From: Heterodontus francisci
Lineage: Eukaryota
Reading direction: 5' to 3'
Assembly: GCF_036365525.1 (NCBI RefSeq)
Contig: NC_090404.1
Coordinates: forward strand, 11,064,550 to 11,128,549
DNA: 64,000 nucleotides
Shown: positions 1 to 50,655 of the stretch, piece by piece
Layout of the letters: each line of letters starts with the position of its first letter
Numbering within the stretch: position 1 is the first letter of the stretch
Translations under genes and position numbers: made by a program
The notes under the pieces: model-generated
Databases searched by the model: none
What the model was told of the DNA's origin: nothing
Seen by the model: the letters and a program-made list of their open reading frames with translations, nothing else

Positions 1-2587
1 ATCTACATGTAGATTGGTCGAACCAGCTCAGTCATGGTAGCCTTGAGGAGGAATTCGTTGAGTGTATCCGTGATAGTTTTCTTGAACAGTTTGTAATGGA
101 ACCGACGAGGAAGTAAGCTATCCTAGATCTAGTCCTGTGTAATGAGACAGGAATAATTAATGACCTCATAGTTAGGGATCCTCTTGGAAGGAGTGATCAC
201 AGTATGGTTGAATTTAGAATACAGATGGAGAGCGTGAAGATAAAATCCAATACCAGGGTCCTGTGCTTGAACAAGGGGGACTACAATAGAATGAGGGAGG
301 ACTTGGCTAAAGTGGGCTGGAAACAAAGATTTTATGGTGGGACAGTTGAGCAGTGGAGGACTTTCAAAGCAATTTTTCAAAGTGCTCAGCAAAAGTATAT
401 TCCAGTGAAAAGGAAGGACTGGAAGAAAAGGGGTAATCTGCCATGGGTGTCTAAGGAAATAAGGGAGGCTATCAAATTGAAAGAGAAGGCATACAAAGTG
501 GCCAAAAGCAGCATGAAACTAGAAGATTGGGAAAACTTTAAAGGTCAACAGAAAGCCACAAAAAGAGCAAGAAAGAAAAGTAAGATAGAACATGAGAAAA
601 AACTAGCACAGAATATAAAGACAGATAGCAAAAGTTTCTATAAATATATAAAACGAAAAAGAGTGGCTAAAGTAAACGTTGGTCCTTTAGAGGATGAGAA
701 GGGGAATTTAGTTATGGGATATGATGAAATGGCAGAGGCATTGAACAGGTATTTTGTATCGGTCTTCTCAGTGGAGGACATGAATAACATGCCAGTAATT
801 GACAAAGAGACGAACATAGGTGAGGAACTGGAAACAATCATTATTACGGAAGAGGTAGTGTTGGGCAAGCTAATGGAGCTAAGGATTGATAAGTCTCCTG
901 GCCCTGATGGAATGCATCCCAGGGTACTAAAAGAGATGGCGGGAGAAATAGCAGGTGCACTGACGGTAATTTTCCAAAATTCGCTTGACTCTGGGGTAGT
1001 CCCAGCTGATTGGAAAACAGCAGATGTGACGCCACTGTTTAAAAAGGGAGGTAGACAAAAGATGGGCAATTATAGAGCGGTTAGCTTAACCTCTGTAGTG
1101 GGGAAGATGTTTGAGTCTATTATCAAGGAAGAAATAGCAGGGCATCTCGATAGAAATTGTCCCGTTGGGCAGACGCAGCATAGGTTCATGAAGGGCAGGT
1201 CATGCTTGACAAATCTTTTGGAATTCTATGAAGACATTACGAGCAAGGTGGACAATGGGGACCCAGTGGATGTGGTGTACCTAGATTTCCAAAAGGCCTT
1301 CGACAAGGTGCCGCACAAGAGGCTGCTGCATAAGATAAGGATGCATGGCGTTAGGGGTAAAGTATTAGCTTGGATAGAGGATTGGTTATTTTTGTTTAGA
1401 GATACAGCACTGAAACAGGCCCTTCGGCCCACCGAGTCTGTGCCGACCATCAACCACCCGTTTACACTAATCCTACACTAATCCCATATTCCCATGTTAT
1501 CTAACAGGAAGCAGAGAATGGGGATAAATGAGTGATAATCTGGCTGGCAATCAGTCACTAGTGGTGTGCCTCAGGGATCGGTGTTGGGACCGCAATTATT
1601 TACAATTTATATAGATGATTTGGAGTTGGGGACCACGTGTAGGGTGTCAAAGTTTGCAGATGACACTAAGATGAGTGGCAGAGCAAAGTGTGCAGATGAC
1701 TGTGAAACTTTGCAGAGGAACATAGATACATTGAGTGAGTGGGCAAAGGTCTGGCAGATGGAATACAATGTTAATAAATGTGAAGTCATTCATTTCGGTA
1801 GGAGTAACAGTAAAAAGGATTATTACTTGAATGGTAAAAAGTTGCAGCATGCTGCTATGCAGAGGGACCTGGGTGTCCTTGTGCATGAATCTCAGAAGGT
1901 TGGTCTGCAGGTACAGCAAGTAATTAGGAAGGCAAATGGAATTTTGTCCTTCATTGCTAAAGGGATTGAGTTTAAAAGCAGGGAGGTTATGTTGCAGCTG
2001 TATAAGGTACTGGTGAGGCCGCACCTGGAGTACTGTGTGCAGTTTTGGTCTCCTTACTTGAGAAAGGATATACTGGCACTGGAGAGGGTGCAGAGGAGGT
2101 TCACTAGGTTGATTCCGGAGTTGAGGGGGTTGGCTTATGAGGAGAGACTGAGTAGATTGGGATTATATTCATTGGAGTTCAGAAGAATGAGGGGGGATCT
2201 TATAGAAACATATAAAATCATGAAGGGAATAGATAAGATACAAGTAGAGAGGATGTTTCCACTGGCAGGTGAAGCTAGGACAAGAGGGCATAGCCTCAAG
2301 ATTAGAGGGAGCAGATTTAGGACTGAATTAAGAAGGAACTTCTTCACCCAGAGGGTTGTTAATCTATGGAATTCCTTTCCCAGTGAAGTAGTTGACGCTT
2401 CTTCAGTAAACGTCTTTAAAGCTAAGGTAGATATCTTTTTGAACAATAAAGGAATTAAGGGATACGGTGAGAGCGCGGGTAAGTGGATCTGAGTCCACGA
2501 AAAGATCAGCCATGATCTTATTGAATGGCGGAGCAGGCTCGAGGGGCCGGACGGCCTACTCCTGCTCCTAGTTCTTATGATCTTATG
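1..2587 (+). mobile_element. CR1 LINE ORF2 (end of endonuclease, RT, 3' UTR), disrupted by stops and a SINE fragment
   Basis: ORFs 204-1481 (KSPGPDG, YLDFQKAFDKVPH) and 1566-2492 (PQGSVLGP, FADDTK, RPHLEYCVQFW); TCTTATGA repeat tail at about 2573-2588. Confidence 0.95.
1388..1494 (-). mobile_element. 3' fragment of HE1-like SINE inserted in the CR1 RT
   Basis: TTTAGAGATACAGCACTGAAACAGGCCCTTCGGCCCACC matches the ends of the longer SINE copies at 53.0 and 63.2 kb. Confidence 0.8.
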
Positions 2588-3026
2588 ACACACCAACGTA
2601 CTCACACTGGGGAGAGGCCGTTCATCTGTTCCATCTGTGGAAAGGGATTCACTCTCATCCAACCTACAGAAACACCAGATAATTCACTGGGAGAGGCCGT
2701 TCACCTTCTCCATCTGTGGGAAGGGATTCACTCAATCATCCAGTCTGGTGGAACACCAGCGAATTCACAGTGGGGAGAGACCATTCACCTGCTTTGTGTG
2801 TCTGAAGGGATTCACCCATTCATCACACCTGCTGACACACCGACAAATTCACACTGGGGAGAGGCTGTTCTGATGCTCTCTGTGTGAGAAGAGATTTACT
2901 CTCAAATCCAGCCGAGTAGCACACCAGCGACTACACACTGGGGAGAGGCCATTCATCTGCTCCATGTGTAGGAAGGTATTCACTTGTTCATCCAACCTGG
3001 TGACTCACCAGCAAGTTCACAAGTGA
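2588..3026 (+). pseudogene. C2H2 zinc-finger exon remnant, truncated by the CR1 insertion and frameshifted
   Basis: HTGERPF-CxxC-GKGF repeats in shifting frames; stop 3024-3026; AATAAA near 3166. Confidence 0.9.
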
Positions 3027-4930: not shown

Positions 4931-5540
4931 GGGGTTTAGAAGGTGAGGATTTACAAATGGGGAAACTCAAACCAAGGGATCTATTTGTCTGCTCTACCTG
5001 TGGGAAAAGATTTCAAACAGCAGTGTGACTGGAAAAGCACAGAGACACACACATCTGAGTGAGAGTGTTGCAGTGAACTAACCCTGGAGGGGGATTCACC
5101 CAGTTACACAAGCTGAAAAAACACCATTCGTATCGAGGAGAGATTGTACACGTGTGTGTGGCTGAGGCTTCAACTGACCATCCAACTTCGAGAGACACAA
5201 GGACACCTCGGAGAAACCGTGGGAATGGGGGGGACTGTGGTAAGAGATTCAATTCCGCATCCAAGTCGGAAACTCATCCGCAGTCACGCTGGGGAGAGGC
5301 TGTTCACCTGCTCCATGTGTGGGAAGGGATTCACTCAGTCACAGCAGCTGTTGAAATATTGGCAAATTCACACTGGGGAGAGACCTGCTCTGTATGTAGG
5401 AAAGAATTCACTGTCACAACTGCTGTTGAGACATTGGCAAATTCACACTGGGAGGAGGCAGTTCACTTGCTCCATGTGTGGGAAAGGATTCACCTAGTCA
5501 CAACACATGTTGAAACACCAGAGAGTTCACATGTGATGAT
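4931..5540 (+). pseudogene. C2H2 zinc-finger pseudogene exon
   Basis: Acceptor TTTTACAG at about 4930; degenerate fingers ([17 protein letters not shown]) with frameshifts/stops; upstream and 3' UTR similar to the minus-strand ZNF at 10.8-11.8 kb. Confidence 0.88.
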
Positions 5541-6310: not shown

Positions 6311-6460
6311 TTTTTTTTCTTTGACCCCGCTTTTTTTTTGATGGGGACAGTGTTGAGGGAACTTTACTCTGTATCTAACCCTGTTTTTTTTTTTTTCTTT
6401 TTTAAGGTGGCCTTTATACCCCAGGCCCCTTTTATATTTTTCATGTCGAGGGGGCCTTTA
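6311..6460 (-). mobile_element. Tx1 3' end plus 69-bp target-repeat fragment and multiple poly(A) runs
   Basis: Matches the Tx1 3' UTR at 46272-46330; flanked by GCACAGATATCCTT (6297-6310) and GCACAGATGTCCTT (6461-6474). Confidence 0.85.
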
Positions 6461-10227: not shown

Positions 10228-10435
10228 CAGCCTGGGGAATAAAGGCTCCCTCGACAAAATAAAAAGGGTCTGGGGTAAAAAGGCCACCTTAAAAAAAAAG
10301 GGGTTAGATACAGAGTAAAGGTCCCTCTACACTGTCCCATCAAACACTCCCAGGGCAGGTACAGCAAGGGTTAGATACAAAGAACATAAAAAATAGGAGC
10401 TGGACTTGGCCATCTGGGGTAAAGCTCCCTCTAAA
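10228..10435 (+). mobile_element. Tx1 3' end followed by 69-bp target repeat
   Basis: CCTGGGGAATAAAGGC...AAGGCCACCTT-polyA-GGGGTTAGATACAGAGTAAAG. Confidence 0.8.
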
Positions 10436-10767: not shown

Positions 10768-11783
10768 TCACTTGTGAACTCGCTGGTATCTCAGCAGGGT
10801 GGATGAATTGTTGAATCCCTTCCCACACATGGAGCAGGTGAATGGCCTTTCTCCACAGTGAGTGTGTTGGTGTCTCAGTAGATAATATCAGCTTTTAAAG
10901 CTCCCCTCAGTCAGAACATTTAAAAGTTCTTTGATCAGTGTGAACTAGTTGGTGTTTCAGCAGGTTGGATGGATAAATGAATCCCTTCCCACAGTCAGAG
11001 CAGGTGAATGGCCTCTCCCCAGTGTGAGTGCGTTGGTGTTTCAGCAGATTATTTTTACTTTTAAAGCTTTTCTCACAGTCACAACATTTAAAAGGTCTCT
11101 GATCAGTGTGAACTTGCTGGTGTGTTAGCAGGGTGGATAACTGAGTGAATCCATTCCCACATACAGTGCAGGTGAACGGCCTCTCCCCAGTGTGAACTCG
11201 CTGGTATGTCAGTTGATCATTTTTTCTTTTAAATCTCTTCTTACAGTCAGAACATTTAAAAGGTCTCTGATTGGAGTGAATAAGTTCATGTCTCGTAAGG
11301 TAGGAAGATCGAGTGAATCCTATCCCACACACACAGCATGTGAATGGCCTCTCCCCAGTGTGACTACGGCAATGTATTTCCAGCTGGGATGGGTAACTGA
11401 ATCTCTTCCCACAGTCTCCACATTTGCAGGGTTTCTCCATGGTGGCAGTGTCCTTTTGTCTCTCCAGCTTGGAAGCTCACTTAAAGCCTTGTCTACACAC
11501 AGATCAGGTGTACAGTTTCTCCTTGTCGTGAATGGTGCGATGTTTTTTCAGGCTGTGTAACTGGTTAAAGCTCTTTCCACAGTCAGTGCACTGGAACACT
11601 CTCACTCGGGTGTGTGTGTGTCTCGGTGCTTTTCCAGTCACATTGATGTTTGAAATCTTTTCCCACAGAAAGAACAGACAAACATTTGATATTCAGGTCC
11701 TGATGAATTGTGTGACTCTGTCAGAGTTTGATGTCCTGCTTGGTTTGTGTTTCCTGTCTTTAAATCCTCCCCTTCTAATCCCC
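10768..11783 (-). pseudogene. C2H2 zinc-finger exon; 177-aa open segment (10907-11440) with 6 fingers (one with His->Tyr), decayed fingers on both sides
   Basis: ORF track; acceptor TTTTAACAG at about 11784; upstream stop and downstream frameshift at about 10910; could still encode a short ZNF. Confidence 0.85.
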
Positions 11784-37720: not shown

Positions 37721-40385
37721 GAATGGACCCGAGCGTCCTTTGCTATATGTCCTCGTTCGTATATTCAATATCACAACTCGCGGGCCTGTCTCTTCACATT
37801 ATTTTGAGTTTCTCACTCAAGACTCGCTCAGATGACGTCAATTGCTTGACTGACCTCGAGCCCGGCCATTGGACACTGCGTCTTTCAAGGAAGCAAATGG
37901 GAGGCTTTTTGCACCAATCAGCGAACAGTACTTGATTACAGTCTCTTAAAAAAAACTCTCCAGTTCCGAGTGTACAACACAGAACCAGATTCCAGGCAGC
38001 TCGCCTTTCCCTTTAAGATTATTTGACTCATTAATCTGCTCAACCTCTCTCCTCTATCTCCTCTTTGCCCACATCGGACAAAGCAGGGCTTTTGATGACC
38101 TAATTTTTTTCAGCGAGTAAAGCGAAAACCGCAGGATGTCCGTTATACAAACGTATGAGCTATGTGAGTTTAACGAGTTCTTCTTGCGGCTTTTAACCCT
38201 GAGCAACGGTTTCCACCAATTGCCTATGAAGGCAAGGGGAATATAGCAGCACTAACCTTGCTATTATTAGTTTTCAGTAACCCTTTTGTGCTCGGTGTGT
38301 GTGAGAGTGGGAGAGGAGGTGTGATAACAGGAAAAAGAGAAAGGAGAGCAATCCTGGAAATATTACCCTAAATCAGAAAGCGATTAAAATGTAACGCAAG
38401 ACAGTTAGCATCTGAAAGTGACAGACAGGAAAAATTCCGGAGTGATCTCAGCGGCCAAGAGTTCATAGAATTGGTTAATTAACCTGTAGCTCTATGCGAC
38501 AGTTTTTAGTTTTTTTACACCATTGATGGACCCTGGGCAATACAGTCAGGTTCCGGACGATTTAGATAAAAATATTGCCATTTTATTTTATCGATTTTGG
38601 CCCTTCAACCTCAAAGTTGATTTCTGTTTATCGGGGAGACTATGCTTTTTCAGTGTATTCACATATTTGCTGACACATTTAGCGCGTTTGCTTTCTCCTT
38701 AATGCAGTATTAGTAACTATTATCACGTCATATTGGTTCTAAAATTCCCCCAATTGTATTGGATAGAATGCGCGCTTAGTAGACATTTTCACATCATCGA
38801 CACAGCGGAATTTGTACTAAATGCACCAACAGCTGGGGTAGCGATCTGAATGGACACTCCATATCGGAGCTGGAATCGATTACTTTAAAGAGAGAGAGAG
38901 AGGTGGACAAGATACTATGACTGATACTTTGCACAAAACTATTACAAATAGGTTAGAAATACTCCTGACCAAAATAAGGAGACAAATCAGGAATCTAACG
39001 GAATGCGGCAGGTCCCAGATATCACGTTCCTTTCGAAAACGTTTCATTTTTATTTTCCAAGCTACCTGATGCCACTTTATAAACATGACTGAAGTCTAAA
39101 CATTTCAATGGAAATGAAGTGACGCAGGACAACATACAAAGTGATAAAGTCCCCGCCCAAACACGAACAGAGATCTCTGTCGTTCAAGATCACAATCAAA
39201 CTCAGTTTGTAAATGCCACGGCGTAGGAAAGAGCAAGAGATTTCGACAGAAATATAACCGTAGGAAACTCAAAACTTTTCGGCTGTACCTAAAACGATTA
39301 TTTCCGAGAAAGAGAAAACAAAATTTTTTTTTTGCCGACTTTATGTTTCTGAATGTCCGTCTACACAGTTCTGGAAAAGGAACAGAGGAAGTCGGATGAA
39401 CTGCAAAAACAATTTGTTTTCGAACAATAATAATGGGAATATTTAATTTTCCAATTCTATCTGTCTATCTCACTTTCTCTGTCCCTTCTCTATTTCCATC
39501 TTTCTCTCCAAGTAAAACTCCATCCACATTGCCCAATGAAACACTCCCAGACCAGGTAAAATATGGTTCGATACAGAGTAAAGCTCCCTCTACACGGTCC
39601 CCATCAAACATTCCCAGGACAGGTACAACACGGGGATTGGCTGGTCAATTTGGAACACTTCCTGCCAGCAATCAGGGGGAGCAGCTGCACCTGTGCTGCA
39701 GCAACTGCAGAGTGGAGAGTGGAGAGTGGAGACTGCAGCAACTGGAGAGAGAGACTGGAGAAAGGTGAATACTGAGTGGAGACTGCACCAACTGGAGAGA
39801 GAGAGAGACTGGAGAAAGGTGAATACAGAGTGGAGGGAAACCATCAAGGAAGGCTGCAATTTTTCTGGAGAGGTGGGTGTCAGGGCACCTGAAAGACTAT
39901 TAAGTTTAAACTGTTTGGGGGAGGGAGAAGAGGCCTGAAGACTCAGGGGTGGGGCAGCCAATCCAGTAGGGGCCCCTGTGTTTGTATTGGTGTTTGCACA
40001 CAGGGAGCTCCCTCCCCACCCCAACTGCCTGCTCGGGACAGCTGGAGTTGCCCGGGTGAAGACTGTCTTGTTAAAATCAGAAGAGGAGAGTACCGGGCGG
40101 CTCCAGCCGTCCCGGGCGAAGAAGCCTCCCCCAACTGGAAGACAACAAACAGTTTTGGACTAATTGTTATAAAGGTGCTCCAACTGGCAGTTGGATCAAA
40201 CATCCTTTTCAGCCTTTCTCTCCCTTCCTCCACTCAGTCGCCTCAGTCACCTATCCTCCCCATTTCCTTTACCATCCTACCCCATCCTCCTCTACTCCCA
40301 CTCCACCTTGTTTAAAGTTTGCTTTTTTTAAAAAATTGTGTAAATTTGTTTTGTTTCTTGGGGGTGGACGTAGCTCTTAGACCCC

Positions 40386-42425
40386 ATGGCAAGCCCCTCT
40401 TCGCCGGTGGCGGGGCCTTCCCGTTCATATGCTGCTGCGGCTGCTGCAGCTGCACCTGTTGCCCCGTCACCTTTTGCTTTATTAACAACGAAGCATGGGG
40501 TCAAGAGCTACGTCCACCCGAACATGACTATAGAGGCATGCGTGAAAGCAATGGCCGAGGTTGTCGGCCCTTCGGCCATTGTTGCAGCCTCTAAAATGTA
40601 CGGGAAGGCAGTGTTTTTCCTGAAGACCGAGCGGGCGGTGTCCCTGGCTCTGAGCAAGGGGCTCACCGTGGGCGGGACCTTTCTGCCAGTGGACCCCCTG
40701 GAGGCCACTGCGCAAAGGCTCATTTTATCCAATGTCCCACCCTTCATCCCTGGTGAGCTCCTCCTTCCCCACCTGCACCATCTGGGGGAGGTAAAGACGG
40801 GGCTCACCCCAGTCCCGCTCGGTCTTCGGGAGAACAGCCTCCGACACGTCTACTCCTTCCGCCGCCAGTTATTCATGCAGCTGGCGCGGGAGGAGGTGAC
40901 AGAGGGCCACTTCAATGTCGAATTCCAGGGGACGGCCTACCGCGTCTTCTGGACCTTGGACGGGGTGCGGTGCCATGTCTGTAAGGGGGTGGGGCATGTT
41001 CGTAAGAACTGCCCCAACCTCCCGGCTGCCAACTCCAACTCAGCGGCCCAGGGTGGCGACGCTGCACCTCCTCCCACCCCCACTACACCACCACCAGATA
41101 CCATTCAGTCGGTACCGGAGGCTGTGGTTTTCACGGCCTCCGGCAGGGAGGGGGGTGACCGTCCAAGTGGAAGGAAGGCGCGGAGGAGAAATAAACATCG
41201 AGAGGCGCGTCCCCTGGATATCATGACACTACCCGAGCCTGAGCTCAGCCCAAGGCCCGATCTCGGGAAGTCAACTTGCCCCAGGGCTGGGCTCAGGCCC
41301 AGGGTGAATAAAAAAAAGGAGAGTGTGGAGGTGGAGGCCTCTGATGATATGGAGGTCTCTGAGCCTCCGCACACAACTGGGAAAAAGAGGAGAAGGCACC
41401 CCTCCACAGAGGTAACAAGGGGCCCTGAGGCGCAGGGCCCATCTGTTGGAGGGGAGCTGTCTCCTGTTTCGGGTCCCCAGGTTTCCCCTACCGCCACCAC
41501 CAAGGCTGCAAAGTCCGGGCAGGTGCTCCCAATTCCTCAGGATGGAGGGAAGGGGATGGCCCCGGTACATGAGGCCCCTACAGAAGGAGTAAGTGGGGCC
41601 CTGCTTGTGGTGGGGGAGCCTGGGGAAGCCGCCCATTCTGCCACTGCTACTGGGTCGGGTGTCCTGAATGAAGGGGAGGGCGAGGCCCCAGAGGGTCGGG
41701 CCTCCCAGCCGGAGTCCACTACCAACCAGGAGACACCCGACCCAGTTATAACTGAGAATGCTGCCCCACCTGCTGGGCCTGTGGGTGCTGGCGGAGCGGG
41801 AGATAGCCTCCTCCCTCCGCCTCCAATCTCGGCTCCGGCTGGTTTCCCGGAGTCGGGAACTTCTGTCTCCCCTGGACCACTCATTGCCCTGGGGACGGAG
41901 GTGGAGGGGGGTCCTGAGCCGCTGGTGCCTACAGGCTCCAGTTTCACAATAGAACCCAGAGAGGACTCCTCCGCCATCGATCCTGGGGGTGGGATCGTGA
42001 CGGAGGCGGGACCAGCTGGCGCGGCCGGGACGTCCGCCCCACAGTGTGTGGTGGATGTGTTGGCCGCTGGCGGTGACGACCCGGAGGAGGATGGGGATTC
42101 GGTGCGGGGCACGGAGGATGATCTTGATTCCATCGCCAGTGAGGTGGTGGAGTCCCTCGTGCCTCCCACCGAATCTCCTCTCATCCCCACGGCGGAACTC
42201 CGGGATTTCCTCGCGGCTTGCAGGGGTTGCCGCAATAAAGTTCAGCTGGCCCTCGACCGTTGGTCGAATCTGGCGCTGATCATCCAGTCCGTCCGTGCCG
42301 CCCTTAAGATAGCGGGTAAGCGCGCGGACGTGAAACTGGTTGAGAGGCGCCGTTTTAATGTGTTCCTCAATGGGTTGCTGGGGGAGTGGAGGGCCAGGTG
42401 CACTTCCACTCCCTCCTCACAGTGA
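40386..42425 (+). CDS. Tx1 ORF1p (RRM-like region, CCHC zinc knuckle, long Pro/Gly/Glu-rich region)
   Basis: SIVAASKMYGKAVFFL, ILSNVPPFI, CHVCKGVGHVRKNC. Confidence 0.9.
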   Translation: MASPSSPVAGPSRSYAAAAAAAAPVAPSPFALLTTKHGVKSYVHPNMTIEACVKAMAEVVGPSAIVAASKMYGKAVFFLKTERAVSLALSKGLTVGGTFLPVDPLEATAQRLILSNVPPFIPGELLLPHLHHLGEVKTGLTPVPLGLRENSLRHVYSFRRQLFMQLAREEVTEGHFNVEFQGTAYRVFWTLDGVRCHVCKGVGHVRKNCPNLPAANSNSAAQGGDAAPPPTPTTPPPDTIQSVPEAVVFTASGREGGDRPSGRKARRRNKHREARPLDIMTLPEPELSPRPDLGKSTCPRAGLRPRVNKKKESVEVEASDDMEVSEPPHTTGKKRRRHPSTEVTRGPEAQGPSVGGELSPVSGPQVSPTATTKAAKSGQVLPIPQDGGKGMAPVHEAPTEGVSGALLVVGEPGEAAHSATATGSGVLNEGEGEAPEGRASQPESTTNQETPDPVITENAAPPAGPVGAGGAGDSLLPPPPISAPAGFPESGTSVSPGPLIALGTEVEGGPEPLVPTGSSFTIEPREDSSAIDPGGGIVTEAGPAGAAGTSAPQCVVDVLAAGGDDPEEDGDSVRGTEDDLDSIASEVVESLVPPTESPLIPTAELRDFLAACRGCRNKVQLALDRWSNLALIIQSVRAALKIAGKRADVKLVERRRFNVFLNGLLGEWRARCTSTPSSQ

Positions 42426-42457
42426 GCTGTTGGTGACGGGTTTTAAGTACCTTTGAC

Positions 42458-45400
42458 ATGAAGATAACCATAGCCAGCCTCAACATCAACGGCAGCAGAG
42501 GGGCTCACCGCAGATTTCACAATCTCTCAGTCCTTAGGGAAGGGAGATACGCGGTGAGCTTTCTGCAGGAAACCCACACCGTTCCGGGAGACGAAGCCAC
42601 CTGGCTCCTGGAGTGGCAGGGTGGGGTCTACATGAGTCACCTCACCCCTATTTCTAGTGGGGTGGCTATCTTGTTGGCCCCGACTTTTCAGCCGGAGATC
42701 TTGGGGGTCAAGGAGCTAGTGCCGGGCCGCTTGCTCCACCTCGCCGTTCGCCTGGGTAGCGTGCCGCTCCACTTTGTGAACGTGTACGCGCCCAGGCCCG
42801 GCGCTTTGCAAGCGCGCTTCTTTGAAGAAGTGTCCGCTCTCTTGAGCTCCATCGATAGCGGCGAGTGCATCATCCTCGGGGGGGATTTTAACTGCACCCT
42901 CGAGGTGGGGGATCGCTCCGGTCCCCAGCGCGGCCAAGCGTCGGTGGAGAAGTTGAGGGGACTGATCAGCTCCCTTAACTTGGTGGACGTCTGGCGGAAT
43001 CTCCATCCCGACTCCAGCGCCTTCACGTGGAGGTCTGGAGGAGGGGGGTCGCGAATCGACCGCCTCTACATTTCGCAGGCGTACGTCTCCCGCGTCTCGG
43101 CGGCCTCCATACGGCTGGTGCCGTGCTCGGACCACCGCCTGGTGTGGGCGGAGTTCACTCCGCTCCGCACGCGGGCGGGGTCCGCGTACTGGCACTTTAA
43201 CAACCGGCTGCTGGAGGACGTGCGATTTCGGGACTCGTTCTGTCGATTCTGGGCCGACTGGAGAAGGAAGCAGGGGGGCTTCCCCTCCTTGAGGCTATGG
43301 TGGGATGTGGGCAAGACTCACATCCGCGTCTTCTGTCAGGAGTACGCGAAGGGGTCGACCAAAAGGCGGGAAGCCGAGATCGGGCGCCTTGAGAGGGAGG
43401 TGCTCGACTTGGAATCCCGCCTCGGTCATGCCGTCGCGGACCCGGCCCTGTGGCAGGCGTACAAAGAGAAGAAGGGCGCGCTGAGGAACCTGCAGCTCAT
43501 AGGGTCCCGAGGCGCGTACGTGAGGTCGCGGATCCAGATCCTGCAAGATTTGGACCGCGCCTCACCCTTCTTCTACTCGCTGGAAAAATGGCGGGGGGTC
43601 CGTAAGCAGCTCGTTGAGCTGCTGGCCGACGACGGATCCTCCATCACGGATCCGGAGGGAATGGGCCTCCTGGTCCGGACGTATTACAGTGCGTTGTTCT
43701 CTCCGGATCCGTCCAGTGAGGATGCGCGCAGATATTTGTGGGAGGACCTGCCGCAGGTCAGCCCGGAGGGCGCCGAAGGATTGGAGGCTCCGCTCACGTT
43801 GGCGGAGCTGACTGGCGCCCTCCACCATCTCTCGAGGGGCAAATCCCCAGGGCTGGATGGGTTGACCGTGGAGTTCCTCAGGGCGTTCTGGGATGTCCTG
43901 GGGGACGATTACGCGGGGGTCCTGGGGGAAAGCCTGGCGACCGGGGAGATGCCCCTCTCGTGGCGCAGGGCGGTCATCGTCCTGCTGCCGAAGAGGGGCG
44001 ATCTCCGCCTGCTTAAAAACTGGCGTCCGGTCTCCCTCCTCAGCACGGATTATAAGATCTTTGCCCGGGCTATGTCTACCCGCCTGGGCTCCGTGCTGGC
44101 CCACATGATCCACCCCGACCAGTCCTACACAGTCCCGGGCCGGTCCATCCAGGACAACATCCACCTGGTCCGGGACCTGATCCATCTTTCCCAGAGGACT
44201 GGTCAGTCGGTCGCCTTTCTCTCCCTCGATCAGGAGAAGGCGTTCGACAGGGTGGATCACGATTACCTTTTCGGGACTCTGCGCGCTTTCGGACTCGGAC
44301 CGCATTTCGTGGCCCGGGTCCGACTTTTATACGCCGCCGCAGAGTGTCTAATCAAGGTTAACGGGTCCTTGACGGCGCCCCTTCGATTTGGGAGAGGAGT
44401 GCGTCAGGGGTGCCCCATGTCCGGCCAATTGTATACCATCTGCGTGGAGCCCTTCCTGTGCCTGCTTCGCAGGAGGTTGACGGGATTGGCTCTGCGCGAG
44501 CCGGCCATGCGGGTCGTCCTCTCGGCTTACGCCGACGACGTGCTCCTCGCAATCACAGATCCCGTTGACTTGCGGAGGATGCGCGACTGCCAGCAGACCT
44601 TTTCTGCCGCGTCCTCCGCGAGGATCAATTGGGAGAAATGTTCTGGACTCCTGGTTGGTCAGTGGCGGGTGGACTCCCTGCCGGAGGAGATGACACCTTT
44701 TGCGTGGAGCACCACGCACCTCCTCTATCTGGGAGTCCACCTTAGCCCCGCTGAGGAAGCCTGGCTGGCAAACTGGCAGGAGTTGGAGGCGAAAGTCACC
44801 GCTCGGCTGGGGCGCTGGACAGGACTGCTCAGAGTGCTTTCCTACAGGGGCCGAGCGTTGGTCATAAACCAACTGGTGGCCTCCATGCTGTGGTACCGGT
44901 TGGTCACTTTGGCCCCGCCCCCTGTATTTGCCACCAAGATCCAGAAGAAACTCGTCGATTTCTTCTGGGGCAAGAGGAAACACTGGGTCTCTGCCGTGGT
45001 CCTGAGTCTCCCGATCGAGGAGGGCGGTCAGTCGCTGGTGTGCGTCCGCACCCAGGCTGCGACTCTCCGCCTTCGGACCCTGCAGAGATACCTGTACGTC
45101 GAGCGTCCTCCCAGATGGTGTGCGCTGGCGACGTATTTTTTCCGCCAGTGTCACTGCCTTCAAGACGACACGCAGCTCCCGGTGGAGTCCGTTAGCCGCG
45201 CCTCTCTGAGGGAGTTGCCTGTCTTTTACCGGGATCTTTTCCGAGTCTGGAACATGGTCGCCTCCAGTCAGGGCGCTCCCCCGCCGGCGGAGGAGAGCGC
45301 CTCGGCTGTCCGGGCGGCCGACTCCGGGGACGGTCCGGCGGGCGGAGGAGTAGCCGAAACCCCCGGGGCGCCCCTCACTGCGGGTGGCGAGGGGGCTCGG

Positions 45401-46195
45401 GAGTGCGGAGCGATCCCGGCCGAGTTGACCCCCGCTCGGCCGGAACTGCTCATCGGACCCAGGCCCCGAAACCCTCCTCGGGAGCCGGTCCCGCACAACC
45501 CGAGCCGCCTCTCGGAAATGCCCTCCGTGCCATTCCAATCGGCGCGGAGGGGTTTCCTGTACGGGCTGTTCCTGCACACTCTCCACTTCCTCGCCCTCGT
45601 CAGCCGGCCGGACACGCCCTGGCGGTCCGCGTTGCCATCTGGCGGCGAGGGGAAACCCCGATGGAGGTCTCTCTACGCGGGAGTCTTCCCCCTTTACATC
45701 GGGGACCTGGGGTGGAGGGTGCTGCACAGAGCAGTCCCGTGCAATAGGCTTTTAAGTAGGTTCACGGACTCCCAGGCCACCTGTACTTTCTGCGGCCTGG
45801 ACGAGTCCGTGTTCCACGTTTATACGGAGTGTGCGAGGTTGCAGCCCCTATTTGAGTATCTGAAGGGGCTGCTCCTCAAATTCTGGCTGCACTTCAGTCC
45901 CACGCTCCTGATCTTTGGGCACCCGGTGCGGAGGGGCTCGGGCCGGGAGGAGGATCTCCTCGTCGGTCTGCTCCTGGGCCTGGCCAAGGTGGCAATTCAC
46001 AGGTCCAGGTTGCGGGCCGTCGGGGGGTCCGTCCTCCCCGATTGCCTGCCCCTCTTCCGCGGTTACGTTCGCGCCCGGGTGTCCCTGGAAAAGGAGCATG
46101 CGGTATCCGCCGGTACGCTTGAGGCCTTCCGCGACCGGTGGGCACCGCAGGGACTGGAGTGCATCGTCGACGCCGAGAATGGCATTTTAATTTGA
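42458..46195 (+). CDS. Tx1 ORF2p (APE endonuclease, RT, zf-RVT), 1245 aa, intact
   Basis: SLNING, LQETH, GGDFN, SRIDR, SDH; KSPGLDG, DQEKAFD, QGCPMS, YADD; CTFC...ESVFHVYTEC. Confidence 0.96.
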   Translation: MKITIASLNINGSRGAHRRFHNLSVLREGRYAVSFLQETHTVPGDEATWLLEWQGGVYMSHLTPISSGVAILLAPTFQPEILGVKELVPGRLLHLAVRLGSVPLHFVNVYAPRPGALQARFFEEVSALLSSIDSGECIILGGDFNCTLEVGDRSGPQRGQASVEKLRGLISSLNLVDVWRNLHPDSSAFTWRSGGGGSRIDRLYISQAYVSRVSAASIRLVPCSDHRLVWAEFTPLRTRAGSAYWHFNNRLLEDVRFRDSFCRFWADWRRKQGGFPSLRLWWDVGKTHIRVFCQEYAKGSTKRREAEIGRLEREVLDLESRLGHAVADPALWQAYKEKKGALRNLQLIGSRGAYVRSRIQILQDLDRASPFFYSLEKWRGVRKQLVELLADDGSSITDPEGMGLLVRTYYSALFSPDPSSEDARRYLWEDLPQVSPEGAEGLEAPLTLAELTGALHHLSRGKSPGLDGLTVEFLRAFWDVLGDDYAGVLGESLATGEMPLSWRRAVIVLLPKRGDLRLLKNWRPVSLLSTDYKIFARAMSTRLGSVLAHMIHPDQSYTVPGRSIQDNIHLVRDLIHLSQRTGQSVAFLSLDQEKAFDRVDHDYLFGTLRAFGLGPHFVARVRLLYAAAECLIKVNGSLTAPLRFGRGVRQGCPMSGQLYTICVEPFLCLLRRRLTGLALREPAMRVVLSAYADDVLLAITDPVDLRRMRDCQQTFSAASSARINWEKCSGLLVGQWRVDSLPEEMTPFAWSTTHLLYLGVHLSPAEEAWLANWQELEAKVTARLGRWTGLLRVLSYRGRALVINQLVASMLWYRLVTLAPPPVFATKIQKKLVDFFWGKRKHWVSAVVLSLPIEEGGQSLVCVRTQAATLRLRTLQRYLYVERPPRWCALATYFFRQCHCLQDDTQLPVESVSRASLRELPVFYRDLFRVWNMVASSQGAPPPAEESASAVRAADSGDGPAGGGVAETPGAPLTAGGEGARECGAIPAELTPARPELLIGPRPRNPPREPVPHNPSRLSEMPSVPFQSARRGFLYGLFLHTLHFLALVSRPDTPWRSALPSGGEGKPRWRSLYAGVFPLYIGDLGWRVLHRAVPCNRLLSRFTDSQATCTFCGLDESVFHVYTECARLQPLFEYLKGLLLKFWLHFSPTLLIFGHPVRRGSGREEDLLVGLLLGLAKVAIHRSRLRAVGGSVLPDCLPLFRGYVRARVSLEKEHAVSAGTLEAFRDRWAPQGLECIVDAENGILI

Positions 46196-46350
46196 GTTTT
46201 TTTGTTTATTTATCTGTTTTAATAAAGTTATTTTAAAACTGTAAATATGTACATAAAGGGGGCCTGAGGGATAAAGGCCCCCTCGATGTGAAAAATATAA
46301 AAGGGGCCTGGGGTATAAAGGTCACCTTGTAAAAAAAAGAAAAAAAAAAA

Positions 46351-46968
46351 CGGGGTTAAATACAGAGTAAAGCTCCCTCTACAAAAAAAAAAAAAACGGG
46401 GTTAGATACAAGCACCGTGAAGAGCGTCTGCAGGCCAAGAAGGTAGAGATCATTAAGACTCTGTCCAAGGAAGAAGAATCTACAAAATAAGTATAGACTT
46501 GCAAGTTAATTAAAAATTACTCATCGGAAAAAAAAACGGGGTTAGATACAGAGTAAAGTTCCCTCTGCACTCTCTCCATCAAACACTCCCATGACATGTA
46601 CAGCACGGGGTTAGATACAGAGTAAAGCTCCCTCTACATTGTCCCCAACAAACACTCCCATGACAGGTACAGCACGGGGTTAGATACAGAGTAAAGCTCC
46701 CTCTGCACTCTCCCCATCAAACACTCCCATGACAGGTACAGCACGGGGTTAGATACAGAGTAAATAATAAAGAAAAAAAACGGGGTTAGACACAGAGTAA
46801 AGCTCCCTCTGCACTCTCCCCATCAAACACTCCCATGACAGGTACAGCACGGGGTTAGATACAGTGTAAATAATAAAGAAAAAAAACGGGGTTAGATACA
46901 GAGTAAAGCTCCCTCTACACTGTCCCCATCAAACACTCCCAGGACAGGTACAATACGGGGTTAAATAC
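46351..46968. repeat. 69-bp satellite (Tx1 target), continuing at 39505-39635 and 49456-49930
   Basis: Unit CGGGGTTAGATACAGAGTAAAGCTCCCTCT(A/G)CACT...AAACACTCCCA(T/G)GACAGGTACAGCA; starts at 46537, 46606, 46675. Confidence 0.93.
46411..46536 (+). pseudogene. RPL19: Processed pseudogene fragment, 3' end of ribosomal protein L19 mRNA
   Basis: HREERLQAKKVEIIKTLSKEEESTK* (stop 46488-46490), ATTAAA 46509-46514, poly(A), TSD CGGGGTTAGATACA. Confidence 0.9.
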
Positions 46969-49455
46969 TCCCCAGGGCTGGATGGGTTGACTGTGGAGTT
47001 CCTCAGGGCGTTCTGGGACGTCCTGGGGGACGATTACGCGCGGTTCCTGGGGGAAAGCCTAGCGACCGGGGAGATGCCCCTCTCGTGGCGCAGGGCGGTC
47101 ATCGGCCTGCTGCCGAAGAGGGGCAATCTCTGCCTGCTTAAAAACTGGCGTCCGGTCTCCCTGCTCAGCATGGATTATAAGATCTTTGCCCGGGCTATGT
47201 CTACCCGCCTGGGCTCCGTGCTGGCCCACATGATCCACCCCGACCAGTCCTACACGGTCCCAGGCCGGTCCATCCAGGATAACATCCACCTGGTCTGGGA
47301 CCTGATCCATCTTTCCCAGAGGACTGGTCAGTCAGTCGCCTTTCTCTCCCTCGATCAGGAGAAGGCATTCGACAGGGTGGATCACGAATACCTTTTTGGG
47401 ACTCTGCGTGCTTTCGGACTCGGGCCGCATTTCGTGTCTGGTCAATGTGTCTGGTCCTTGACAGCGCCCCTTCGCATTGGGAGAGGAGTGCATCAGGGAT
47501 GCCCCATGTCTGGCCAATTGTATACCATCTGCGTGGAGCCCTTCCTGTGCCTGCTTCACAGGAGGTTGACGGGATTGGCTCTGCGCGAGCTGGTCATGCA
47601 GGTCGTCCTCTCCTCTTACGCCGACGACCTGCTCCTCATGGTCACAGATCCCGTTGACTTGCAGAGGATGCATAACTGCCAGCAGACCTTTTCTGCTGCG
47701 TCCTCTACGAGGATCAATTGAGAGAAATGTTCCGGACTCCTGGTTGGTCAGTGGCGGGTGGACTCCCTGCCGGAGGAGATGACACCTTCTCTATCTGGGA
47801 GTCCACCTTAGCCCCGCTGCAAAAGCCTGGCCGGCAAACTGACAGGAGTTGGAGAAGAAAATCACTGCTCGGCTGGGGCGCTGGACAGGACTGCTCCGAG
47901 TGCTTTCCTATAGGGGCCGAGCGCTGGTCATAAATCAGCTGGTGGCCTCCATGTTGTGGTACCGGTTGGTCACTTGGGCCCCGCCCCCTGCATTTGCCAA
48001 CAAGATCCAGAAGAAACTCGTCGATTTCTTCTGGGGCAAGAGAAAACACTGGGTCTCTGCCACGGTCTTGAGTCTCTCAATTGAGGAGGGCGGCCAGTCA
48101 CTGGTGTGCGTCCGCACCCAGGCTACGACTCTCCGCCTTCGGACCCTGCAGAGATACCTGTACGTCGAGCGTCCTCCTAGATGGTGTGCACTGGCGATGT
48201 ATTTTTTCCGCCAGTGTTACTGCCTTCAAGACGACGTGCAGCTCCCGGTGGAGTCCGTTAGCCGCGCTTCTCTGAGGGAGTTGCCTGTCTTTTACCAGGA
48301 TCTATTCCGAGTCTGGAACATGGTCGCCTCCAGTCAGGGCGCTCCCCCGCCGGCGGAGGTGAGTGCCTCGGCTGTCTGGGCGGCCGAGTCCGGGGACGGT
48401 CCGGCGGGCGGAGGAGTAGTCGAAACCCCCGGGACGCCCCTCACTGCGGGTGGCGAGGGGGCACGGGAGTGCGGAGCGCTCCTGGCCGAGCTGACTCCCG
48501 CTCGGCCGGAACTGCTCATCAGACCCAGGCCCCAAAACCCTCCTCAGGAGCCGGCCCCGCACTACCCGAGCCGCCTCTCGGAAATGCCCTCCATGCCATT
48601 CCAATTGGCGCGGAGGGGTTTCCTGTACGGGCTGCTCCTGCACACTCTCCACTTCCTCGCCCTCGTTAGCCAGCCAGACACGCCCTGGCAGTCTGCATTG
48701 CCATCTGGCGGCAAGGGGAAACCCCGATGGAGGTCTCTCTACGCGGGAGTCTTCCCCCTTTACATCGGGGACCTGGGGTGGAGGGTGTTGCACAGGGCAG
48801 TCCCGTGCAATAGACTTTTAAGTAGGTACACGGACTCCCAGGCCGCCTGTATTTTCTGCGGCCTGGACGAGTCCGTGTTCCACATATATATGGAGTGTGC
48901 GATGTTGCAGCCCCTCTCTGAGTATTTGAAGGGGCTGCTCCTCAAGTTCTGGCTGCACTTCAGTCCCAGGCTCATGATCTTTGGCACTCGTGAGCGGAGG
49001 GGCGTGGGCCGGGAGGAGGATCTCCTCGTCAGTCTGCTCCTGGGCCTGGCCAAGGTGGCAATTCACAGGTCCAGGTTGTGGGCCGTCGGGGGGTCCGTCC
49101 TCCACGATTGCCTGCCCCTCTTCCGCAGTTATATTCGCGCCCGGGTATCCCTGGAAAAGGAGCATGCGGTGTCCGCCGGTACGCTTGAGGCCTTCTGCAA
49201 CCGGTGGGCACCGCTGGGACTGGATTGCATCCTCGACGCCGAGAATGGCATTTTAATTTGAGTTTTTTTGTTTATTTATCTGGTTTTACTAAAGTTATTT
49301 TAAAACTGTAAATATGTATATAAGGGGAGCCTGAGGAATAAAGGCCCCCTCGATGTGAAAAATATAAAAGGGGCCTGGGGTATAAAGGCCACCTTAGAGA
49401 AAAAAAAACGGGTTAAGGAAAAAAGAGAAAAGAAACCCCCCCCCCTCCAAAAAAA
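46969..49455 (+). mobile_element. 5'-truncated, frameshifted Tx1 copy
   Basis: ORFs 46987-47721 and 47849-49261 closely match ORF2; TSD ACGGGGTTAAATAC at 46955-46968 and 49456-49469. Confidence 0.95.
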
Positions 49456-50655
49456 ACGGGGTTAAATACAGAGTAAAGTTCCCTCTGCACTCTCCCCAAC
49501 ATATACACCCATGATAGGTACAGCACGGGGTTAGATACAGAGTAAAGCTCCTTCTACACTCTCCCCATCAAAAAAGAGGGAAAAAAGGGGCTTAGATACG
49601 GAATAAAACTCACTCTACACTGTGCAATCAAAGGCTCCGAGAGCTGATACATCTCGGTTAGATATAGAACAAAGCTTCCTTTACACTTTCCCGTCAATCA
49701 TTTCCAGGGGAAGCGCACATTGTGCTGGATACAAATTGAAACCTCCACCTACACTGTCCAATGAAACATCCCCAGATGAAATTCAGCATGGCTTAGATAC
49801 AGAGTAAAGCTCCATCTGCACTGTTCCATCAAACACTCCCAGAGCAGGTACAGTATGGGTCAGATACAGAATAAAGTTCGCTTGACATTGTGTCATCAAA
49901 AGGTCCCAGAGTAGCTGTAGTACGGATTATATACATCAGGACGTGTTACAGCGAACACTTACATGCCAACTGCTGCAGCTTTTAAATAAAACTCAGAGCT
50001 CCCTTTCGTCTGCCCCACAAAATACCCCCATGTCAGGTGCATCTCAGCTGACGCACGGAATATATCTGTTATCCCGTTCCACTAAATACTCCAATCTCAG
50101 GTATAATACGATTACCTGCAAACTGAAGGCACCCTTTCCCATTCAGCAATCCCAGTTAGATACAACTTGTTATAATATTCCTCTATTGCAGCCCAATAAT
50201 GCTTTTGAACCAAATACAACATCTTGTCATTATATTGTCAACTGATAAAAGTTTGAAGCGTCAGATTTCCAGTGTTGACCCGCCTATCATTCAGTTTGTG
50301 GTTCAGTGGATAAAATAATGTTTGGACATGGAAACCGAATTGAGTAAACCTGATAACTATGTCGGCTAACACCGGGGCAAATTCACCCTTAAAACTGCCT
50401 CATTGTCATATAAACCCAACGAGTTCACTGATATCCTTAACCTATATCAGGGTTATAGTTAGAATTATTCAAAGGGAAGAGTGAATTCAGAGGTGTTTTA
50501 GATTTCCAATTCCCACTTGAAGAGTGTTGCCAGTGAAAGTTTATTTTCAAATCCTCGGATACCACGGTCAGCTGATGTCGAATTGCTTTGTGTGTGAAAT
50601 CATTTACAAGTGCCTCATACGATATTAGCTATCTGCTGATGTGCTTATCTATACA

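Follow-up and report, generated by a model that had tools for sequence, protein, structure and literature searches.

The short RPL19 insert of the analysed window (64,000 nucleotides of the Heterodontus francisci genome; positions below are those of the window, and the insert, Tx1 elements and repeat units around it all lie on its forward strand) is probably a second-generation retrocopy, located at the insertion base of a Tx1 retrotransposon and placed there by the Tx1 ORF2 protein from the RNA of an older RPL19 retrocopy. Genome-wide, copies of host mRNAs accumulated at the same base as Tx1 far above chance, a preference which was strong and not exclusive.

Tx1 Elements and Repeats around the Insert

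The full-length Tx1 element A (39632–46350, with an A-rich tail at 46331–46350) had both frames open and was preceded by two repeat units, one degenerate and one near-typical (39540–39631). Its ORF1 (40374–42425, 683 codons from stop to stop) contained a CCHC knuckle recognized by eye and had no match in Pfam, and its ORF2 (42437–46195) included predicted APE endonuclease (PF03372, E 1e-16) and reverse transcriptase (PF00078, E 3e-38) domains. The best named full-length match of ORF2 was the Xenopus Tx1L ORF2 (P0004; 50% identity over 100% of the query), besides a 93% partial match labelled Heterodontus francisci. The 3' end of the element was 99–100% identical to the 40 copies scored among 1520 candidates. 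On sequence grounds, element A is assigned to the Tx1 clade of non-LTR retrotransposons: it encodes APE and RT, groups with Tx1L (by similarity, not by a tree) and is target-specific, for which Kojima 2015 (PMC4494074) gives a threshold of more than 20% of flanks of one kind.

Directly behind element A, a 32-nt piece of a repeat unit followed by A14 (46351–46396) may represent either a 3' transduction by this element or a separate mini-insertion; similar pieces were found behind many young Tx1 copies. The insert starts 46 nt behind the tail of element A and is followed by a local array of the 69-bp repeat (46537–46968), which opens with the 3' copy of the target duplication (46537–46550) and has two short A-tailed interruptions with a 106-bp period. 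The next Tx1 element B (46969–49456) was 5'-truncated and older, with 88.6% identity to element A in the first aligned piece, and its 13-bp duplication (46956–46968 and 49457–49469) had the same variant base on both sides. In a comparison made by eye, four variant positions were common to the unit following the insert and the one following element B, so that the 3' flank of the insert looks local. Very short A-tailed pieces at the phase of the insertion base (hereafter the nick) were also seen at 49409–49456, 46764–46780 and 46870–46886, and degenerate target units at 6370 and 10299–10379. Three stretches of the window with 84/168-bp periodicity (2586–3021, 5306–5517 and 10773–11363) resemble C2H2 zinc-finger arrays.

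Structure of the RPL19 Insert

The target 14-mer was present on both sides of the insert (46397–46410 and 46537–46550), and the 126 nt in between contained the last RPL19 codons, the stop, a short UTR with ATTAAA and nine A's, as had been described in the first-pass annotation. The coding end (46411–46490, stop codon at 46488–46490) included 26 codons matching residues 171–196 of eL19/RPL19, with three amino-acid-changing substitutions relative to the gene, all of which were also present in an older retrocopy on contig C19. The 3' UTR (46491–46527) lacked the 12 nt after the stop, had its ATTAAA at 46509–46514 and ended with three bases identical to the C19 copy and different from the gene, while the A9 tail (46528–46536) was of the same length as in the C19 copy. 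The identity of the insert was established in two ways: by a PDB sequence search with the 26-aa piece (best E 6e-7) and by alignment to the intron-containing RPL19 gene on contig C33, whose last exon matched in 112 of 127 columns with one 12-nt gap, the 3' UTR included, in agreement with the earlier expectation that the insert would match the RPL19 of the same species. At the position of the tail the gene continues without an A tail, which means that the tail of the insert was not templated by the gene. The window copy lies wholly in the last exon and inherits its intron-loss status from the C19 copy. Pfam gave no match for the 26-aa RPL19 piece, the C19 piece or the RPS3A and RPL17 pieces considered below; the C19 piece was named by BLAST to the RPL19 gene, and the RPL19, RPS3A and RPL17 pieces by PDB sequence search.

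The duplication itself was a weaker point than the earlier description of a perfect 14-bp target-site duplication implied. The 69-bp repeat unit begins with this 14-mer, and the window contained 15 matches to it when up to two mismatches were allowed, eight of them exact, against a chance mean of 0.2. Since it opens every repeat unit, identity of the flanks is expected for any insertion at that phase, and the duplication needs other support. In addition, base 46410 belongs to target and insert alike and was counted in both, so that the duplication is 13 or 14 bp long, and in a tandem repeat a duplication is distinguishable from a short deletion only by an empty allele. The presence of the 14-mer on both sides was confirmed, being weak proof when taken alone.

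An Older Retrocopy on Contig C19 and the Descent of the Window Copy

Three RPL19 matches were found in the genome, namely the window copy, the copy on contig C19 (100%) and the intron-containing gene on C33 (88%), the match counts of the search tool being lower bounds. The 240-nt C19 copy joins two exons that are about 690 nt apart in the gene, sits at the same repeat base as the window insert and, over 238 nt, differs from the gene by a 12-bp deletion and eight substitutions, seven of which change an amino acid as judged from the alignment. The window copy had in common with it all three substitutions in its range, the 12-bp deletion, the three terminal bases and the A9, within an identical run of 149 nt. 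The identity extended beyond the A9 for 22 further target bases, after which the window continued in local-looking units and the C19 flank broke off into a second A tail.

These derived changes, common to both copies and absent from the gene, indicate that the window insert descends from the decayed copy or has a donor in common with it, and by its sequence it is classified as a second-generation copy that did not come from the mRNA of the gene. The first-pass annotation had the insert copied straight from RPL19 mRNA, which is contradicted by this result. An independent retroposition of RPL19 mRNA at the window locus would account for the tail at the poly(A) site of the gene, the duplication and the 5' truncation, but it leaves unexplained the three substitutions, the 12-bp deletion and the three terminal bases in common with C19; moreover, seven of the eight C19 substitutions change residues, and neither a second RPL19 gene nor a third retrocopy was found with a longer query in the genome assembly. 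We regard this explanation as close to refuted. Among the features of a processed pseudogene, intron loss (in the C19 copy), an A tail after the poly(A) signal of the gene and a 13–14-bp duplication at the commonest phase were all found, while direct copying from the parent mRNA is contradicted by the changes in common with C19.

The donor may have been a C19-like locus missing from the assembly, and the C19 copy may itself be a transduced one. The latter stands in a stack (L036; C19, 89.067–89.068 Mb) consisting of repeat units, an unnamed UTR-like retrocopy with a tail, nine units, RPL19, a piece of target and a second tail, and the whole stack may have moved as one RNA. As a contrast set, ten RPS14 copies had no derived changes in common except at two sites, one where all covering copies differed from the gene and one with a C-to-T change in two copies. 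Two of the RPS14 copies (L111 and L114) were considered as products of a single transduction; this was rejected, as their 3' flanks were only 87% alike, and they were taken as independent.

The Insertion Site Genome-Wide

The exact target 13-mer occurred 11,599 times in 6.0 Gb (83 for the reversed control), i.e., at about 1e-6 per position and strand, and 2040 of these occurrences directly followed eight A's (none in the control). In each of the 30 youngest Tx1 copies examined by eye (from 1520 candidate 3' ends, 40 of them scored), the tail was followed by nick-phase sequence, a set in which five copies have one inherited junction and some carry the target piece elsewhere. The young Tx1 tails were mostly longer than A9.

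The 5' junctions, whose phases were read by eye, were variable. In truncated Tx1 copies they were mostly located from 0 to +14 of the unit and were densest from +10 to +14, and the 5' junction of the window insert, at +13/14, was on the commonest phase of truncated Tx1, which was also used by the host inserts L077, L088, L089, L098 and L103. The host inserts had the same range as Tx1, plus junctions at +30 to +65. Seven full-length Tx1 copies had one fixed repeat-derived 5' junction in common, and two short A-tailed inserts (L050 and L104) consisted of repeat and the first Tx1 bases; taken together, this suggests that transcription starts in the repeat or passes through it.

On the first large contigs, the target sites clustered within about 20 Mb of a contig end. 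A region of C19 (88.26–88.30 Mb, L060–L066) was occupied by an array of at least 38 kb made of a short target piece and an A tail, that is, by a new satellite formed from insertion junctions.

Host mRNA Copies at the Site

A search for a poly(A) signal followed by A7 and the target produced 73 matches genome-wide (1 in the control), of which 66 junctions at 65 sites were read, leaving out seven on small contigs. By eye, 15 of the 66 were coding ends of 11 host genes, 14 were UTR-like unique inserts, 13 were Tx1 ends, 20 were repeat fragments and one was another LINE, with three left without assignment; since the pattern enriches for host inserts, these shares are not valid for all 2040 junctions. 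Pfam recognized RPS16, RPS14, ferritin, RPL39, MRPS21 and EIF3M above the cut-off and ATP synthase c and RPL31 below it, and PDB names were obtained for RPL19, RPS3A and RPL17. Two UTR-only inserts were each traced to one other locus that continues without a tail, one of them lying behind an exon that is MARCKS-like by its motif.

Some inserts were present more than once. One UTR insert occurred twice on C41 (L088 and L090, at 33.62 and 33.92 Mb), 300 kb apart and with the same 5' junction, each copy differing from the parent by one base at a different position. The insert of L047/L048 was also duplicated with unchanged 5' junctions; in L047 (positions 1420–2330; C7, 5.83 Mb) a truncated Tx1 lies between two copies of the same RPS3A retrocopy with its tail and about 50–60 nt of repeat, so that some 160 bp including an earlier insertion seem to have been duplicated. 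Open full-length frames were observed at the target for RPS14 (L081, 151 aa), RPL39 (L097, 51 aa) and RPL35A (L186/L187, no stop in the match), which makes these loci candidates for expressed retrogenes inside transcribed arrays.

Retrocopies of Genes Chosen without Regard to the Site

The enrichment was assessed with RPS19, RPL37A, RPL35A, RPS7, RPL21, RPLP0, TCTP and one P-protein gene met in passing, scoring retrocopies with a visible 3' end. Five loci (L177, L194, L195, L198 and L199) were dropped for having none, L186 was merged with L187 and L140 with L142, and L130 and L132 were counted as gene exons. The retrocopies at the nick were 0/1 for RPS19, 1/6 for RPL37A, 3/11 for RPL35A, 1/1 for RPS7, 1/7 for RPL21 and 1/1 for the P-protein gene, while the family searches of the genome with RPLP0 and TCTP found no retrocopy. 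In total, 7 of 27 copies were at the nick against about 1e-6 expected by chance, and even with ten times more degenerate sites fewer than 0.001 such copies would be expected. All seven belonged to the 16 copies with at least 90% identity to the gene and none to the 11 below 90% (one-sided Fisher p about 0.013, calculated by hand), a difference to which an under-count of old on-target copies may contribute, as flanks decay. For RPS14, which had been found via the site, the proportion was 7/10, or 4/7 without the three copies that led to it. A ferritin search was left out of the tally, being swamped by a gene cluster: on C41 (31.65–32.28 Mb, L144–L172) at least 37 ferritin-like copies stand in tandem, their last exons resembling the query at about 80%.

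The predicted enrichment of retrocopies at this site was thus borne out, and the site was strongly favoured, yet it received only a minority of all retrocopies. With 20 of 27 copies off target overall and 9 of 16 among the young ones, either other machinery or relaxed cutting must also make retrocopies. Accordingly, the suggestion that host mRNAs are written into a fixed site stands with respect to the common base with Tx1 and the unbiased sample, and holds for only a part of the retrocopies. Nor were retrocopies scarce in this genome: 16 of the 18 RPL35A matches were outside the gene.

The young off-target copies also bear on the possibility that a different LINE, such as an ordinary L1, makes the host retrocopies by using nicks or open chromatin at the arrays, with Tx1 merely co-using the site. 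A non-targeted machinery may indeed exist, given these nine copies. On the other hand, the on-target copies are confined to a single base of the unit and have the 5' junction range of Tx1, the primer end is not T-rich, unlike the preference of L1, and four of the young off-target copies (L113, L178, L188 and L196) have GG or GGG directly after the tail, as relaxed cutting by the same Tx1 enzyme would give. We therefore consider another LINE as the source improbable.

Proposed Mechanism

In Tx1 copies, host mRNA copies and repeat fragments alike, the A tail ends at one and the same base of the 69-bp unit, and this common nick points to the Tx1 enzyme as the agent. From the common insertion base and from what is known of LINE biology, ORF2 would nick the bottom strand at that base and start reverse transcription on poly(A) RNA, either in cis or in trans. 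With CCCCG at its end, the primer strand is G+C-rich and cannot pair with poly(A), so that priming would proceed without the T-rich pairing used by L1. On C19, a spliced RPL19 copy stands at the nick and has decayed. The arrays are presumably transcribed in the sense of the inserts, so the embedded copy would be available for recopying, and its RNA would have ended at its own signal or read through the A9 into the target sequence. In the latter case the target sequence in the RNA could pair with the nicked strand, and reverse transcription would begin at the fresh nick. The window copy corresponds to the 3' half of this decayed sequence, joined to the unit by a new 5' junction at +13/14. Pairing of a read-through RNA with the primer would explain the unchanged A9, considering the mostly greater length of young Tx1 tails.

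The equal length of A9 in both RPL19 copies fits read-through priming and also a copy made at the DNA level. A break in the target, perhaps a Tx1 cut, could have been repaired with a C19-type locus as template, joined at the 3' side through homology between repeats and at the 5' side through a microhomology of 1 nt; the original RPL19 insertion would in that case still be a targeted retrocopy. Such a repair is consistent with the identity of A9 and the 22 further target bases, with the microhomology and with the duplication of other inserts with unchanged 5' junctions (L088/L090 and L047/L048). It does not predict that the 5' breakpoint should coincide with the phase most frequent in Tx1, which takes up 2 of the 69 possible positions, nor that the insert should be 5'-truncated like a product of reverse transcription, and the downstream unit looks local, unlike C19, which breaks off into the second tail. 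Copying at the DNA level appears unlikely on this balance, and a route through RNA for the second copy is favoured with reasonable confidence.

Comparison with Known Systems

According to the prevailing view, most LINEs with site specificity depend on their own 3' tail, and those that take any poly(A) RNA mostly show no DNA specificity. The shark Tx1 family appears to combine site specificity with the acceptance of any poly(A) RNA. Tx1L of Xenopus laevis produces a fixed 23-bp duplication. Tx1L and the target-specific LINEs of the Tx1 clade (Keno, Kibi, Koshi and satellite-targeting families) resemble the shark element in having APE and RT, a poly(A) tail and one position of a multicopy repeat as target. 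In contrast to Tx1L, the shark target is a dispersed 69-bp repeat and the 5' junctions range, as read by eye, over the unit from 0 to about 65 nt, and the shark system differs from all of these LINEs in carrying many host mRNAs to its site.

L1 copies are dispersed and primed at T-rich nicks, whereas in the shark about four in ten young copies are on one repeat base with a G+C-rich primer end. In L1/SVA 3' and 5' transduction, neighbouring sequence is carried via read-through RNA, and a retrocopy can template another; in the shark the carried flank is the target itself, so that at the nick the template may have homology to the target. According to Ohshima 2013 (PMC3747384), which distinguishes stringent from relaxed RNA recognition, L1 processed pseudogenes are similar to the shark copies: their introns are lost, their poly(A) is at the site used by the gene, they are 5'-truncated and flanked by a duplication, and they have the same bias to ribosomal-protein and other abundant messages.

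The movement of SINEs by Tx1 into its own target is already known. A figure legend of Kojima 2015 (PMC4494074) includes satellites among the Tx1 targets, and the paper infers that Tx1-Mar moves SINEU into its own target in crocodilians. As in the shark, a Tx1 with a target preference would there transport, in trans, unrelated RNAs with a poly(A) tail, and tandem insertions sandwich one duplication in both systems; the crocodilian cargo consists of snRNA-derived SINE families, while the shark cargo comprises spliced protein-coding mRNAs and one recopied decayed copy. The RPL19 insert resembles a SINE-like family in having the target of a LINE in common with it, yet it had two copies in the assembly and no RNA-gene head was seen. 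A 2026 preprint (10.64898/2026.06.26.734816) reports 14,081 retrocopies in cartilaginous fishes and ties retrocopies outside mammals to CR1 or Tx1 content; the word 'satellite' is absent from its available part. A literature search outside subscription journals, Repbase reports and supplements, where this family may be recorded, revealed no publication that describes mRNA retrocopies directed to one fixed site.

Significance

The combination of the two traits makes the shark Tx1 family a candidate for the targeted insertion of arbitrary RNA, and its fixed landing site would offer an easily mined record of germ-line or early-embryonic RNAs of the shark, in which, as the RPL19 pair demonstrates, not all entries are independent. 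Such copies may be under-counted by retrocopy pipelines with the filters described in PMC13320880, where an exon junction is demanded and repeat-overlapping candidates are dropped. More tentatively, and with doubts prevailing, the arrays might act as a self-feeding archive, into which a sequence-specific Tx1 enzyme with relaxed RNA recognition writes any abundant poly(A) RNA at one base and from which, after transcription of the arrays, RNAs with target sequence downstream of the A tract pair with the nicked strand and are re-inserted with an advantage. If this were true, dead gene copies would be mobile without a promoter or a LINE tail of their own, which would open a route to new SINE-like families, and ORF2 would be a natural site-specific writer of arbitrary mRNA.
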